From: Escherichia phage ECML-183-2
Sequence record: OL631481.1
Strand: one strand, 5' to 3'
DNA: 64,000 bases
The position numbers and the translations under genes are program-made. The notes under the pieces were generated by a model. It searched no databases, was not told where the DNA came from, and saw nothing but the letters and a program-made list of their open reading frames with translations. This document shows positions 10,005-12,372 of the stretch, one piece after another; position 1 is the first letter of the stretch, and every line of letters starts with the position of its first letter.

Positions 10005-10030
10005 AGCAAAAAGCCTCCAATAAGGAGGCT
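10005..10030 (-). terminator. intrinsic terminator ending the tRNA transcription unit
   Basis: hairpin GCCTCC-AATAA-GGAGGC followed by TTTTT on the minus strand. Confidence 0.6.
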
Positions 10031-10145
10031 AATAAATACTGTTAATTTGAAATGCTTTATTATGATTGTGCGTTAAGGAGTCGCACCCCTCCATCTTAGA
10101 AGGAACCAGGCAAGGTCTTCAAAGATACCGCTGGCAAGCGATATT

Positions 10146-10224
10146 TGGAGGCGGGAATTGGATTTGAACCAATGATCTCCAGCATATGAAACTGGCGAGG
10201 ACGACCAGACTCCTCTATCCCGCT
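10146..10224 (-). tRNA. tRNA-Met(CAT)
   Basis: hand-folded cloverleaf: anticodon loop TTCATAT, T-arm ATTGG-TTCAAAT-CCAAT, encoded CCA; position 1-72 is an A-C mismatch. Confidence 0.6.
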
Positions 10225-10301
10225 ATTATGTATCCCGTGCTGGATTCGAACCAGCATCACAAAAATTGTGGATCTCTTATCCTGTAAGTCTAACGGGAAA
10301 C

Positions 10302-10375
10302 TGGTTGTTTCGACAAGAATCGAACTTGTGTCTCACGATTATCAGTCGTGGGTTCTACCATTGAACTACGAAACA
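10302..10375 (-). tRNA. tRNA-Ile(GAT)
   Basis: acceptor TGTTTCG/CGAAACA, anticodon stem CACGA/TCGTG with loop CTGATAA, T-loop TTCGATT, encoded CCA. Confidence 0.75.
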
Positions 10376-10438
10376 TTTAAAAGAATATCTCACGTCTGAT
10401 ACAGACTAACCTTTTGTCTGACGCATGAAATATTTAAT

Positions 10439-10515
10439 TGGTCGGAATTGCAGGATTCGAACCTGCGACCCTACGCTCCCAAAGCGTATGCTCTACCAAA
10501 CTGAGCTAAATTCCG
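10439..10515 (-). tRNA. tRNA-Pro(TGG)
   Basis: acceptor CGGAATT/AATTCCG, D-arm GCTC-AGTTTGGTA-GAGC, anticodon loop TTTGGGA, T-arm GCAGG-TTCGAAT-CCTGC, CCA. Confidence 0.8.
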
Positions 10516-10520
10516 TTATA

Positions 10521-10596
10521 TGGCTGGTCTGTCTGGATTTGAACCAAACCTACGACAGTCAAAGTGTCGTGTGCTACCGGACTACACTACAAACCA
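10521..10596 (-). tRNA. tRNA-Gln(TTG)
   Basis: acceptor TGGTTTG/CAGACCA, anticodon stem CGACA/TGTCG with loop CTTTGAC, T-loop TTCAAAT, CCA. Confidence 0.8.
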
Positions 10597-10694
10597 ATAA
10601 ATCATTTAATGAAGGGCAACCAGAAGAAGTGTGAGAGAAGGAGAAAACCATGAGTAAAAGAGAAAGTTTTCTGGCAACCCTTTATTAAATAATT

Positions 10695-10771
10695 TGGAGC
10701 GTTATATCGGATTCGAACCGATGCCACCGACTTGGAAGGACGGGATGCTGAACCGCTAACACTAATAACGC
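10695..10771 (-). tRNA. tRNA-Gly(TCC)
   Basis: acceptor GCGTTAT/ATAACGC, anticodon loop CTTCCAA (one stem mismatch), T-arm ATCGG-TTCGAAT-CCGAT, CCA. Confidence 0.65.
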
Positions 10772-10784
10772 TTTGTATATATTT

Positions 10785-10814
10785 ACTATACTACATTTTA
10801 CTATCGAATGTCAA
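10785..10814 (-). promoter_or_regulatory. sigma70-like promoter (TTGACA-N18-TATAGT) inside the tRNA cluster
   Basis: minus-strand TTGACA 10814-10809, 18 nt spacer, TATAGT 10790-10785; predicted start a few nt upstream of the tRNA-Gly 5' end. Confidence 0.5.
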
Positions 10815-11089
10815 TAGTTATTTAATAGGTGGGACAGTGACGAGTATCCCTTTGGGTGACTAGCCCTACGTTCGGTAAGCTAACTTAAAATAATACAAAA
10901 CCAAAGTCAAATATTATTCTTCGTTGCTGTCGATGGGAGAGCCGCTTCTTCTTTTGCCCCATCCAACCCTACTCCGGTCAAGTTTCAGGTAACTCTTTGT
11001 GTGATCAACACAATACTAAGAACACTGTCTTTCGAACAGACCTTGTGCACAGGATACGACGATCAATCACAGTGCCCTTAATGTTGTGT

Positions 11090-11164
11090 TGGTGCTCCCA
11101 CTCTGAATCGAACAGAGATCCACGGATTACAAAACCGTTGTAATAGCCATTATACTATAGGAGC
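11090..11164 (-). tRNA. tRNA-Thr(TGT)
   Basis: acceptor GCTCCTA/TGGGAGC, anticodon loop TTTGTAA, T-arm CTCTG-TTCGATT-CAGAG, CCA. Confidence 0.65.
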
Positions 11165-11255
11165 AAAGCTGGGACTCGGCAGGATTCGATACCTGCAATT
11201 CCAGAAGCCTCTTGGCGACTGGGGGGTTTACCTTAACTCTACAAGTCCATAATTC

Positions 11256-11341
11256 TGGCGATGAGTATAGGATTTGAACCTATATCGTTCTTTCGAACAC
11301 GGATTAACAGTCCGCCGCTTAAACCATTCAGCCAACTCATC
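11256..11341 (-). tRNA. tRNA with anticodon GTT (Asn-type) but type-II architecture
   Basis: acceptor GATGAGT/ACTCATC, anticodon stem GCGGA/TCCGT with loop CTGTTAA, extra variable hairpin GTTC-GAAA-GAAC, T-arm ATAGG-TTCAAAT-CCTAT, discriminator G, CCA. Confidence 0.5.
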
Positions 11342-11347
11342 TTAATT

Positions 11348-11435
11348 TGGTGGTGAGTGATGGAGTCGAACCACCCGAATCGCAATGATAACAGATTTAC
11401 AGTCTGCCCCGCTACCCCTACGGAATTAACTCACC
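11348..11435 (-). tRNA. tRNA-Tyr(GTA)
   Basis: acceptor GGTGAGT/ACTCACC, anticodon arm CAGA-CTGTAAA-TCTG, long variable arm, discriminator A, CCA. Confidence 0.8.
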
Positions 11436-11565
11436 TAAATGCTAATATTTAAATTCTTTTTAAAATAGCCAGTGTTCACACCACTAACTATGAGGTATCG
11501 GTAAAGTGGTTACCGCCACTTGCCGAAGATTTACTCTGCTAAAGTAAGCTATATTAAAAAGAACT

Positions 11566-11651
11566 TGGCGGTAGATGTAGGACTCGAACCTACACGCCGT
11601 TTCCGACTACAGTTTAGCAAACTGTCGTGGCTACCATTTCACCAATCTACC
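11566..11651 (-). tRNA. tRNA-Ser(GCT)
   Basis: acceptor GGTAGAT/ATCTACC, anticodon arm ACAGT-TTGCTAA-ACTGT, long variable arm, T-arm GTAGG-TTCGAGT-CCTAC, discriminator G, CCA. Confidence 0.8.
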
Positions 11652-11655
11652 AATC

Positions 11656-11746
11656 TGGCGGAAGGAGGGAGAGTCGAACTCCCAAGGCTCTTTCAAGCTC
11701 GGCGGTTTTCAAGACCGTTTTCGTCGCCACGTCGATTTGCCCTTCC
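11656..11746 (-). tRNA. tRNA-Ser(TGA)
   Basis: acceptor GGAAGGG/TCCTTCC, anticodon region ACGGTCTTGAAAACCGCC, long variable arm, T-arm GGGAG-TTCGACT-CTCCC, CCA. Confidence 0.8.
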
Positions 11747-11754
11747 ATACTTAT

Positions 11755-11784
11755 AATCTAACATAAAATAATGTTAGTTGTCAA
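11755..11784 (-). promoter_or_regulatory. sigma70-like promoter directly upstream of tRNA-Ser(TGA)
   Basis: minus-strand TTGACA 11784-11779 with a weak -10 about 17-18 nt downstream; tRNA 5' end at 11746. Confidence 0.35.
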
Positions 11785-11980
11785 TAGTTTTTTAAAACAT
11801 TTTACCATGAATGGTGACTCCACCAACCCCCGTTCTCAGCGAACGGTGCTCTTCGAGCATTTATGTCTTCTAATATAACCGTGGCCTTTGTTTATAATGT
11901 CTGACATACTTACCTCATTCTCTGCCACCATGATCAGTAGTGGGTTCAAATCACTTGAGCTAATTCATGTTAAAATGTTC

Positions 11981-12055
11981 TGGTGTCTTTACAAGGAATC
12001 GAACCTTGACTAAGAGTTTAGAAGACTCCTGTGCTATCCATTACACCATAAAGAC
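11981..12055 (-). tRNA. tRNA-Arg(TCT)
   Basis: acceptor GTCTTTA/TAAAGAC, D-arm GTGT-AATGGATA-GCAC, anticodon loop CTTCTAA, T-arm CAAGG-TTCGATT-CCTTG, CCA. Confidence 0.75.
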
Positions 12056-12057
12056 GT

Positions 12058-12132
12058 TGGTGGCCCTGGCTGGTTTCGATCCAGCTACCTATCGGTTATG
12101 AGCCGACAGCTCTCCCATTGAGCTACAGGGCC
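12058..12132 (-). tRNA. tRNA with CAT anticodon (Ile2-lysidine type or elongator Met)
   Basis: acceptor GGCCCTG/CAGGGCC, D-arm GCTC-AATGGGA-GAGC, anticodon loop CTCATAA, T-arm GCTGG-ATCGAAA-CCAGC, CCA; overall resembles bacterial tRNA-Ile2. Confidence 0.7.
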
Positions 12133-12342
12133 ATAAATGTGGTAACAGAGACGCTGACGATTGTAGAGAACCGCTACATTCTCTAAGACCAAGCCCAACT
12201 TTCAGCGTAAAAGTTCTTGAGCCGAGACTATTCCTTTTCCTCTTTGGTAGCTAACCTCTGAAGAAGTAGTCTCTAACACTATCCGCAGTGCAAGCCTCTC
12301 TTAACAAAAGTCAACGACCCTGTTACCACACTTGATGAACGT

Positions 12343-12372
12343 ATCCTAACATATGAAGGATACGTTTGTCAA
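12343..12372 (-). promoter_or_regulatory. sigma70-like promoter at the upstream end of the tRNA unit
   Basis: minus-strand TTGACA 12372-12367 with a weak -10; overlaps a 9 bp inverted repeat AACGTATCC/GGATACGTT. Confidence 0.3.

Follow-up and report, generated by a model that had tools for sequence, protein, structure and literature searches.

The tRNA Operon Array of Phage ECML-183-2

Escherichia phage ECML-183-2 (sequence record OL631481.1) carries, within the 64,000-nucleotide stretch analysed here (hereafter the window), a cluster of tRNA genes interspersed with structured spacers, one of which, designated S, is complementary to the 3' end of a plasmid gene named for abortive infection (abi). 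The minus strand from 10005 to 12372 is the tRNA operon array of a phAPEC8-type phage, and the 2.6 kb around the locus shows 97-98% identity to many Escherichia phages of the genus Phapecoctavirus (phAPEC8-like, Stephanstirmvirinae, approximately 150 kb). The cluster as such is ordinary and is annotated in dozens of relatives. In the best annotated one, vB_EcoM_ASO2A, tRNAscan-SE gives the same 12 tRNAs in matching order and on the matching strand (Met-CAT, Ile-GAT, Pro, Gln, Gly, Thr, Asn, Tyr, Ser-GCT, Ser-TGA, Arg-TCT and Ile-CAT), and the records of other relatives annotate 10-11 of these, with Tyr and the terminal Met labelled 'pseudo'; the cluster itself is therefore already known.

A bacterial-type tRNA was taken to be a cloverleaf that scores above the Rfam gathering score, or is called by ARAGORN, and has a 7-nt anticodon loop. 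Twelve genes belong to this class, 11 of them scoring 39-72 bits with the tRNA model RF00005 (gathering score 29) and 10 being called by ARAGORN. All lie on the minus strand and, unless stated otherwise, were found by both ARAGORN and Rfam: a tRNA with a CAT anticodon (12058-12132; Met according to ARAGORN, Ile2/lysidine type according to tRNAscan-SE in ASO2A), tRNA-Arg(TCT) (11981-12055), a class II tRNA-Ser(TGA) with an atypical D arm (11656-11746; tRNAscan-SE in ASO2A and a sub-threshold Rfam match), tRNA-Ser(GCT) (11566-11651), tRNA-Tyr(GTA) (11348-11435; Rfam match 11351-11435 at 39 bits, and the ASO2A annotation), a GTT-anticodon tRNA (Asn) with a long variable arm (11256-11341), tRNA-Thr(TGT) (11090-11164), tRNA-Gly(TCC) (10695-10771), tRNA-Gln(TTG) (10521-10596), tRNA-Pro(TGG) (10439-10515), tRNA-Ile(GAT) (10302-10375) and an atypical tRNA-Met(CAT) (10146-10224; 'pseudo' in the Mt1B1_P17 record). 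An earlier sequence-only reading of the window had proposed at least 12 CCA-encoding tRNAs, and ARAGORN and Infernal reproduce their identities and boundaries (10 by ARAGORN at the same coordinates, with Tyr added by Rfam and Ser-TGA present in ASO2A).

The same reading had described a minus-strand unit with multiple promoters and a single terminator, and a sequence scan returned these signals at the places indicated, with promoters beginning at 12372, 11784 and 10814. The three predicted sigma-70 promoters (-35 and -10 elements at 16-18 bp spacing, 10-11 of 12 consensus positions matching) are promoter P1 (12343-12372; TTGACA-18-TAGGAT with an extended TG and an upstream 11-mer, AACTATTGACA), promoter P2 (11755-11784; TTGACA-18-TAGATT with TG) and promoter P3 (10785-10814; TTGACA-18-TATAGT). 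Consensus promoter matches as a class are not enriched in the window (8 found versus 7.8 in shuffles). The 11-mer, on the other hand, occurs exactly three times in the 64 kb, each time at one of these promoters, and in the 81%-identical allele of phage phiWec179 the -35 and the TG-extended -10 hexamers are retained while the spacers have diverged. The -10 element of promoter P2 ends 8 nt before tRNA-Ser(TGA) and that of promoter P3 13 nt before tRNA-Gly, so transcripts from these two would carry very short leaders; the -10 element of promoter P1 lies approximately 210 nt before the first tRNA. The intrinsic terminator (10005-10030, minus strand; AGCCTCC-TTATT-GGAGGCT followed by TTTTT) has a 7-bp stem with five GC pairs at 10030-10012. 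No convincing terminator was found by the scan between promoter P1 and 10030, where the other minus-strand matches fall inside tRNA anticodon arms.

The three promoters would thus feed a single read-through unit ending at one terminator. Host tRNA-processing enzymes would cut the polycistronic precursor, with RNase P acting on the tRNA 5' ends and RNase E, RNase BN or exonucleases on the 3' ends, and the products would be 12 tRNAs, two anticodon-less RNAs (elements A and B) and several spacer RNAs. All spacers longer than approximately 60 nt fold with both ends paired, and with their ends clamped in long helices the spacer RNAs should persist as stable RNAs. This operon and processing architecture can be regarded as nearly certain.

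Inverted repeats overlap two of the promoters. In promoter P1, a 9-bp repeat (AACGTATCC/GGATACGTT; 12339-12366) extends across the spacer and the -10 element and persists with altered sequence in phiWec179 (AAGCGTGTCTTA/TAAGATACGCTT), and in promoter P2 a repeat (CTAACAT/ATGTTAG; 11757-11778) covers the spacer and the extended -10 element; they could be operators, or hairpins in read-through transcripts. At the other end of the unit, the first 80 nt or so of the 3' trailer (10031-10145, minus strand) are approximately 90% conserved in the phi92 group, and its distal part together with the terminator (10005-10059) weakly resembles RyhB (29.4 bits versus a gathering score of 55; E 0.0095 in a 2.6-kb search), an AGTATT..TTAGCC stretch just ahead of the terminator hairpin being recognizable by eye in both. 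This part of the trailer may be an Hfq-type 3' module, or the likeness may be due to chance. As Rfam assignments, the RyhB-like match (29 bits, at the terminator) and a Plastid-ycf2 match on the strand opposite the tRNAs were both dismissed as weak and at chance level.

S, a Conserved Structured RNA in the Cluster

S occupies 11448-11565 on the minus strand, beginning right after the CCA of tRNA-Ser and ending 12 nt before tRNA-Tyr. It has a cloverleaf-like fold consisting of a 16-bp clamp (P1) and hairpins P2, P3 and P4 (P numbers without the word promoter denote helices of S throughout). A consensus derived from 13 diverse copies contains 36 pairs in four helices, with 99.6% of the alignment cells paired; eight pairs have changed on both sides, a number reached by none of 500 shuffles, whereas slid controls gave 39-53% paired cells and 0-1 pairs changed on both sides. 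The corresponding covariance model scores 97-139 bits on the tRNA strand versus 23-45 bits on the other (e.g., 134 versus 44), and G-U pairs likewise favour the tRNA strand. Rfam 15 contains no match at E <= 10 within S or within the leader RNA described below.

At 75-97% identity, S is conserved in 173 phage records belonging to Phapecoctavirus, Justusliebigvirus, Vequintavirinae and T5-like Tequintaviruses, the latter including Spc35, phiLLS, SaI_NFG, Stp1 and others. Its surroundings differ among these groups: it follows the CCA of tRNA-Ser or tRNA-Arg, or a hairpin in Vequintavirinae, while in the T5-like phages it is the leader of tRNA-Tyr and begins a few nucleotides past a strong promoter; the next tRNA is Tyr, Lys or Phe. 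Because its context is so variable, S behaves as a portable cassette. By covariance model it was not found in the tRNA regions of T5 and BF23, nor in Pantoea phage F5M2A, KpS8 or Erwinia phage vEam_W_25, and T5 has a different closed leader at the corresponding position before tRNA-Tyr. Pattern scans added little diversity (four IMG/VR contigs, and nine metagenome contigs of which three were judged real by the covariance model), and the S pattern had no match in 185,579 species-representative bacterial genomes.

Two copies show rearrangement. An IMG/VR phage (L012, 7214-7393) has an S with a 45-nt insertion that resembles the 5' part (P2 and P3) of a second allele, of the LTH01/A7_1 type, and is thus a partial tandem of two S cores. 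In the rV5-like phage JES2013 (L017, 3131-3222), an S 97% identical to that of the window is followed by a tRNA-Tyr with a disrupted 3' strand in its acceptor stem, which points to a recent exchange of an S-Tyr module between subfamilies and subsequent decay of the tRNA.

Complementarity of S to the Plasmid abi Gene

A link between a spacer and a plasmid defence gene had not been foreseen by the sequence-only reading. In a BLAST search, nucleotides 18-79 of S matched, at 96.8% identity, 168 of 5,426 complete Escherichia coli genomes, and in 166 of these the match was on a plasmid. In PLSDB, 441 plasmids were matched by the segment as it occurs in ColIb-P9 (403 conjugative, including ColIb-P9 itself, NC_002122) from Escherichia, Salmonella, Klebsiella and Shigella. 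The plasmid copy, which has no Rfam match, is carried on the complementary strand of a 114-aa CDS that terminates in ...CRRFTLLK* (C-terminus ...GKVVTATCRRFTLLK*). In its transcribed orientation, the S core (P2, P3 and the junction; 55 nt, 11494-11548, minus strand) is antisense to the 3' end of this CDS, with perfect complementarity over 55 nt (62 nt at 96.8%) to the last 18 codons or so and the stop codon.

The 114-aa product is named 'abortive infection protein' by NCBI and UniRef and is predicted to be a membrane protein with a hydrophobic core; it has no match to Pfam, NCBIfam or PADLOC models. The gene shows 73-85% nucleotide identity across IncI1, IncK, IncF, Raoultella IncFII and Pantoea plasmids, in which its neighbours vary (DUF4238, DUF4145, pifC). 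In IncI1 and IncK plasmids it adjoins a DUF4238 gene, and the PADLOC model DUF4238-Pers is listed among known or candidate defence proteins; DUF4238 was rejected as the partner of the S-like segment, since the neighbour changes with plasmid type (DUF4145, pifC and others) and abi is constant. A scan finds a sense-strand promoter (TTGACA-17-TAACAT) approximately 320 nt upstream, giving ColIb-P9 abi (L032, 3518-4210) an apparent 5' untranslated region (UTR) of about 320 nt. It has been reported that ColIb plasmids abort infection by T5 and BF23 at the ibf/abi locus with loss of membrane potential, that the trigger is the T5 A2 protein, and that the ibf/abi gene products have not been identified (PMC10644984; bioRxiv 10.1101/866236).

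Individual S cores match individual plasmid alleles. The ColIb and IncK alleles of abi are 78% identical in the core; the cores of the window (55 of 55 nt, which is also its longest exact match) and of phAPEC8 are 100% identical to ColIb-P9 and 78% to IncK, whereas that of IMG/VR contig L013 is 100% identical to IncK and 78% to ColIb. The exact match extends to 71 consecutive nucleotides between phAPEC8 and ColIb-P9, taking in the hairpin of the abi 3' UTR, and to 56 between L013 and the IncK plasmid pRK1. The cores of Mt1B1_P17 (96%) and BME3 (95%) also follow the IncK allele, and that of phiWec179 is closest to the IncF allele (85%). Within Phapecoctavirus, cores are found to differ by 24% in phages with 98-99% identical flanks, which indicates that cassettes are swapped in the phages, while on the plasmid side divergence of the core keeps pace with that of the remainder of abi. 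The simplest history compatible with these sequences would be repeated plasmid-to-phage transfer, or conversion of the cassette core. A second scan of the 185,579 species-representative genomes, aimed at further abi alleles, returned no match.

The plasmid locus might be a type I toxin-antitoxin system: it encodes a 114-aa protein with a hydrophobic segment and carries, on the antisense strand just past the abi stop codon, a conserved promoter-like sequence, which the promoter scan did not call. In all five plasmid alleles CTGTTGACAT is followed after 17 nt by TG-TA(G/A)C(G/T)T, which suggests a plasmid-encoded cis-antisense RNA beginning at P2; no terminator was found for this putative RNA.

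The same complementarity and allele matching would be expected if the 3' end of abi mRNA acted as a detector, S being the trigger that activates the toxin by pairing, and defence systems that sense conserved phage products are common. However, the known trigger is the A2 protein, and T5 and BF23 are aborted by ColIb even though no S is found in their tRNA regions, which disfavours this explanation. A trigger would moreover be counter-selected, yet S has been kept and its core swapped to match plasmid alleles, and the divergence of the plasmid core in step with abi points to transfer from plasmid to phage. A sensing role of this kind is therefore considered quite improbable, and S is discussed below as a putative silencer of abi.

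Elements A and B

Two further loci had been noted as lacking both an encoded CCA and a regular anticodon arm, and both descriptions hold. Element B (11168-11248, minus strand) possesses a 7-bp acceptor stem (GGACTTG/CGAGTCC) and a T arm with a 5-bp stem and an 8-nt loop, TATCGAAT; unpaired TAGAGTTAAGGTAAACC takes the place expected for the D arm, and a central hairpin, CCAG-TC-GCC-AAGA-GGC-TT-CTGG (4+3 bp with an AAGA tetraloop), replaces the anticodon arm. CCA is not encoded, and RF00005 has no match in B at E <= 10, which sets it apart from the bacterial-type tRNAs. In the T5 record (NC_005859), whose tRNA region lists five 'stable RNAs with unknown functions' (RNAI, RNAIII, RNAIV, RNA2H and RNAX) and three 'tRNA-like' RNAs (RNA1, RNA2 and RNA3) located between tRNAs and promoters, RNA3 is a 'putative tRNA-like RNA' directly after tRNA-Asn. 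B is likewise found directly 3' of tRNA-Asn in the window, phiWec179, BME3, phi92, L012, L013, T5, Spc35 and SaI_NFG. It shares with RNA3 the fold and a motif made up of an invariant TGTAGAGTTAA in the D region, followed by AAA and CC, and an 8-nt T loop, (T/C)ATC(G/A)AAT.

Copies of B form three lineages (phAPEC8/BME3, phi92 and T5/Spc35) in which all three stems differ in sequence and still pair. In their alignment 97.3% of the cells are paired, and both sides have changed in 9 of 16 pairs, compared with 22-49% paired cells and 0-3 such changes in slid controls. A covariance model detects one copy per locus at 75-105 bits in all three lineages, true tRNAs scoring 25 bits or less, and none in the loci of Vequintavirinae, Certrevirus, Mydovirus and Kolesnikvirus. 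Since the stems differ yet pair, and the covariance model retrieves all lineages, B is, on the evidence of motif, position and covariation, a new member of the T5 RNA3 family that has been selected as RNA.

Element A (10231-10300, minus strand) is a tRNA-Arg-like body with a collapsed anticodon loop, its nearest canonical tRNA being tRNA-Arg(TCT). The match at 10231-10299 scores 28.8 bits, just short of the gathering score of 29. There is a 7-bp acceptor stem with U-U at 1:72, a 4-bp D-like hairpin with GG in its loop, and a canonical T arm (5-bp stem, TTCGAAT loop). The anticodon arm, CACAA-TTT-TTGTG, consists of a 5-bp stem and a 3-nt loop, and the 3' tail is ACAT. Element A therefore falls outside the bacterial tRNA class in score, in lacking a 7-nt anticodon loop with U33 and in lacking the 3' CCA seen in the tRNAs of the cluster. 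In other Phapecoctaviruses the loop has 4 nt. The Vequintavirinae copies (LTH01, A7_1 and UPEC06) keep the full 17-nt arm with loops CGTATCG or CGTCTCG, in which C32-G38 and G33-C37 pairs close the loop to 3 nt and position 33 is G; compensatory replacements of C-G by U-A in the acceptor stem and of G-C by A-U in the T stem are present. The collapse of the loop by different routes in two lineages hints at selection for an anticodon-less tRNA body, and a decaying tRNA-Arg gene is a serious alternative, A being known from these two lineages only. The Vequintavirinae cluster of LTH01 holds more degenerate tRNA-like elements (L006, 1355-1445 and 2575-2665), one with an Arg-like CTTCTAA loop and no D arm, the other Ser-like with a CCA 'anticodon' and an unpaired acceptor.

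Compared with RF00005, A and B retain the 7-bp acceptor stem and the 5-bp T stem, and A also the TTCGAAT loop and the GG of a D-like loop, but both lack a 7-nt anticodon loop and an encoded CCA, and the T loop of B has 8 nt. Such bodies might act, independently of S, as mimics of tRNA: decoys or competitors for host enzymes or for defence nucleases that read the acceptor, T arm or elbow, or entry points for RNase P. Phage tRNAs are known countermeasures to tRNA-targeting defences (PMC10264068; PMC11555353; PMC11464382). The two routes to a collapsed loop in A (C32-G38 and G33-C37 pairing in Vequintavirinae, a deletion of 3-4 nt in Phapecoctavirus, with compensated acceptor and T stems in either case) and the short-looped central hairpin common to all three lineages of B are in keeping with mimicry. 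However, A is restricted to two lineages, its closeness to tRNA-Arg(TCT) suits a pseudogene, and neither A nor the Phapecoctavirus and phi92-type copies of B encode CCA; mimicry appears unlikely.

The Leader RNA, the G Hairpin, and Other Spacers

The sequence-only reading had suggested that gaps between the tRNAs might hold other small RNAs. This holds in principle, although the two gaps it named (10815-11089 and 11790-11980) turned out to be weaker candidates than three others that it had not listed, namely S, the leader and the G hairpin.

The leader RNA (12133-12336, minus strand; approximately 200 nt) lies at the promoter-proximal end of the unit and is closed by a 16+7-bp helix, the helix ending 6 nt before the first tRNA. 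Its minimum free energy is -78 kcal/mol (z -7.4) on the tRNA strand versus -55 kcal/mol (z -4.5) on the opposite strand. In a single comparison with the 81%-identical phiWec179 allele, 55 of 76 predicted pairs are unchanged; 9 are altered on both sides and 6 on one, another 5 are broken, and 1 coincides with a gap. The leader was found in Phapecoctavirus only.

The G hairpin (10597-10694, minus strand; z -5.3) comprises a helix of approximately 24 bp with three G-U pairs that encloses a conserved, CU-rich loop of 40 nt. In the phi92 group another stem sequence has taken its place, which pairs as well and includes five G-U pairs; within the loop, 36 nt show 92% conservation. No Rfam match at E <= 10 was obtained for G apart from a 20-bit match to SpF41 (E 5.9) centred on tRNA-Gly. 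The loop (10625-10660) contains ...CUCAUGGUUUUCUCCUUC, the exact complement of an ideal Shine-Dalgarno sequence, spacer and AUG, and the plus strand opposite accordingly reads AAGGAG-N6-ATG and opens a 12-codon ORF (8 codons in the phi92 group). G could be an anti-ribosome-binding-site RNA, or there could be an antisense micro-ORF opposite it. Coding constraint on the opposite strand was rejected as the source of the conservation, because the conserved 10-mer is frame-shifted between the two lineages; the G-U pairs also favour the tRNA strand.

The inverted repeats of these spacers might instead act as DNA, for example as recombination sites, targets of homing endonucleases or an origin. HNH endonucleases do occur in related clusters (in phage nepoznato an HNH endonuclease gene is inserted in the cluster) and the modules are mobile. 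Against this stand the asymmetry between the strands, with G-U pairs on the tRNA strand only, the roughly 90 bits by which the S covariance model scores higher on that strand, and the difference in folding energy of the leader. A role as DNA is accordingly very improbable, and the structures are treated here as RNA. Selection has very likely acted on S, B, the leader and G as RNA structures.

The spacer between tRNA-Arg and promoter P2 (11790-11980, minus strand; z -3.0) has ends that pair (AACATTTTAaCATGAAT/ATTCATGgTAAAATGTT), and the comparison with phiWec179 supports it weakly, with two compensatory and ten broken pairs, the closing helix and 3' hairpins being kept and the middle replaced. 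That between tRNA-Thr and promoter P3 (10815-11089, minus strand) has a z of only -1.0 overall and includes a 5' hairpin domain (11004-11089) that is nearly invariant between alleles, the remainder being divergent. Copies of this domain with 80-84% identity are present in 11 E. coli chromosomes and one Salmonella plasmid. The two chromosomal copies inspected (L038, 5001-5061, and L039, 5001-5083) lie between prophage portal and terminase genes, and one prophage copy adjoins a 'pseudogenic tRNA-Gly', just as the domain in the window precedes tRNA-Gly. Spacer modules also vary among close relatives. A 63-nt hairpin between tRNA-Pro and tRNA-Ile (10376-10438, minus strand) is a rare insertion, shared identically only by nepoznato and at 88-90% by three further phages; ASO2A and phiWec179 have instead a 93-nt closed module between Gln and Pro (L001, 2061-2153), and Mt1B1_P17 has neither.

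When all spacers and elements other than S (leader, Arg-to-promoter P2, B, Thr-to-promoter P3, G, Pro-to-Ile, A and trailer) were compared by BLAST with PLSDB and the 5,426 E. coli genomes, none matched a defence gene, and only the Thr-to-promoter P3 hairpin domain matched at all (a few prophages and the Salmonella plasmid). The idea that all spacers are antisense cargo is therefore unsupported beyond S.

Proposed Silencing of abi and Competing Explanations

These observations could be combined in a model in which S is a phage-encoded antisense, or antitoxin-mimic, RNA against abi. Maturation of the tRNA-Ser 3' end and a cut by RNase P at tRNA-Tyr would free S from the precursor, with P1 shielding the ends of S, as the anatomy of the locus suggests. 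The loops of P2 and P3 and the single-stranded junction would nucleate loop-loop pairing with the mirror-image hairpins of abi mRNA, and pairing would extend to a 55-bp duplex over the abi stop codon. The duplex would block completion of translation or recruit RNase III, so that no membrane toxin would build up when host transcription is shut off. This last step is proposed by analogy with the 3'-overlapping antitoxin of the type I system bsrG/SR4 (PMC3834814) and with pseudo-ToxI, a mimic in the ToxIN system (PMC3594212). Following type I toxin-antitoxin logic, S would replace the plasmid cis-antisense RNA, which would decay after the phage shuts off host transcription, and the phage would escape abortive infection. 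The phyletic pattern is correlated accordingly: T5 and BF23, which ColIb aborts, lack S in their tRNA regions, and the T5-like phages Spc35, phiLLS and SaI_NFG carry it.

Several points weigh against this reading. The S alleles of LTH01, A7_1 and the T5-like phages are only 65-89% identical to the best of the five sampled plasmid alleles. The bases of S that are complementary to abi are mostly sequestered inside its own hairpins. Divergence in the stretch of abi targeted by S does not consistently exceed that in the remainder of the gene (78% versus 86% between ColIb and IncK, the reverse for other pairs), so that no clear arms-race signature is seen on the plasmid side; a hypervariable target stretch among the plasmid alleles was considered and rejected on the same comparison. 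Gene conversion between homologous stretches could give rise to allele matching without selection. The 114-aa ORF is a candidate for the ColIb abi/ibf determinant by virtue of its database names alone, and the putative plasmid antisense promoter, which the promoter scan did not call, has a weak -10 element (3 of 6 positions).

The whole might alternatively be an ordinary tRNA cluster, in which the spacers are processing stems or insulators acting only in cis (e.g., as RNase III/RNase P punctuation), A and B are decaying tRNAs, and the S-abi match is a functionless fossil of recombination. tRNA decay is real in such clusters, as shown by the broken acceptor 3' strand of the JES2013 tRNA-Tyr beside an intact S; the loop of A has 3, 4 or 7 nt depending on the relative; closely related phages differ by gain and loss of spacer modules; and the abi target stretch is not specially divergent. 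The long closing helices would also be plausible sites for RNase III, an enzyme reportedly implicated in T4 tRNA synthesis by McClain in 1979. A fossil, however, would not be expected to yield two distinct perfect matches of 55-56 nt to plasmid alleles that are 78% alike, nor to persist across three phage lineages inside a covarying scaffold, and the homology arms within the core (9-11 nt) are short for neutral gene conversion. Neither does decay agree with B, which retains an invariant unpaired motif while its three stems covary, or with G, whose loop is conserved though its stem has been replaced. This explanation is the main alternative, and a rather unlikely one.

For the preferred reading, the chance that S is an antisense or antitoxin-mimic RNA against abi is judged to be close to even, perhaps slightly below, and the full statement (a tRNA operon, spacer RNAs processed from it, and S silencing abi) is assigned a probability of about 0.5. 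A broader proposal is more tentative and falls somewhat short of an even chance: that large lytic coliphages of three lineages (Stephanstirmvirinae, Vequintavirinae and T5-like Demerecviridae) carry S as a portable cassette, allele-matched to the abi genes of ColIb/IncI1, IncK and IncF plasmids, which is released from a pre-tRNA and silences abi by pairing of the two RNAs, and that, by extension, the stable RNAs of phage tRNA clusters (RNAC and RNAD of T4, the T5 RNAs, the leader, G, A and B) constitute an anti-defence reservoir.

Among the systems with which the locus was compared is the T5 tRNA region. In both, many tRNAs are encoded on one strand, several sigma-70 promoters are located inside the cluster and structured non-tRNA RNAs are interspersed; besides the correspondence between B and RNA3, the promoter-proximal closed leader RNA2H parallels the leader of the window. 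No T5 counterpart of S, the leader or G was detectable by BLAST or covariance model, however. RNAC and RNAD of T4 (species 1 and 2) are similarly short, stable RNAs that are encoded alongside phage tRNAs, in whose region they arise, and no role is known for them (PMC3014915; PMC9697503), but no sequence relationship was found, T4-like matches being confined to tRNA stretches. PhiTE pseudo-ToxI is a phage RNA that mimics the antitoxin of the type III abortive-infection system ToxIN (PMC3594212); like it, S is homologous to a plasmid-borne element, here of a putative Abi system, and would keep a toxin silent. ToxI, in contrast, is a repeat RNA that binds the toxin protein, whereas the complementarity of S is to the mRNA of the presumed toxin, and S, which lies within a tRNA operon, has a clamp specific to the phages. 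With type I systems the proposed S-abi pair would share a small hydrophobic membrane toxin, an antisense RNA directed at the 3' end of the toxin mRNA, and hairpin loops of a kind that could begin kissing contacts; the differences are that the antisense RNA is here encoded by the phage, that the plasmid one is deduced from a conserved -35 and a weak -10 element, and that Abi (114 aa) exceeds the usual length of type I toxins. Among type I systems, hok/sok excludes T4.

Mimicry of an Abi antitoxin by phage RNA is a known strategy, within which the allele-matched antisense relation between S and abi would be new. Searches of the literature, with little coverage of the older ColIb and T5 papers, yielded no description of S, the leader, G or any phage RNA matching abi, and none of the records examined annotates S, the leader or G; together with B, these three are conserved structured RNAs that current phage annotation and Rfam have overlooked. 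The S-abi match makes two questions testable, namely the role of the stable non-tRNA RNAs in T4 and T5 tRNA clusters, which have been known since the 1970s, and how ColIb abortive infection of T5 and BF23 works and is escaped by phages. If the model is true, antisense silencing by RNA-RNA pairing joins the known counter-defence mechanisms of phages, and tRNA operons serve as expression and processing platforms for anti-defence RNAs.

Atypical tRNA Genes

Three tRNA genes of the cluster deviate from the usual pattern. tRNA-Ser(TGA) gives only a sub-threshold match to the tRNA-Sec model (37.4 bits versus a gathering score of 47) and is labelled 'pseudo' in the phi92 record, while its acceptor stem, anticodon loop, long variable arm, T arm and CCA are all normal. 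The terminal tRNA-Met(CAT), which scores 50 bits, shows what looks like an A1-C72 mismatch, together with U73 and a D stem of 5 bp. The 86-nt 'tRNA-Asn' (GTT) has a class II shape, with a long variable arm (GTTC-GAAA-GAAC) and G73. This arm covaries among phages (GAAC/GTTC in phi92, GTC/GAC in Spc35 and GAGC/GCTC in KpS8), and T5 and one Pantoea phage have a normal class I tRNA-Asn. SerRS recognizes a long variable arm and G73, AsnRS the GUU anticodon and G73, and the tRNA(GUU) of the window displays both sets of determinants; its acceptor stem is similar to that of the adjacent tRNA-Tyr.

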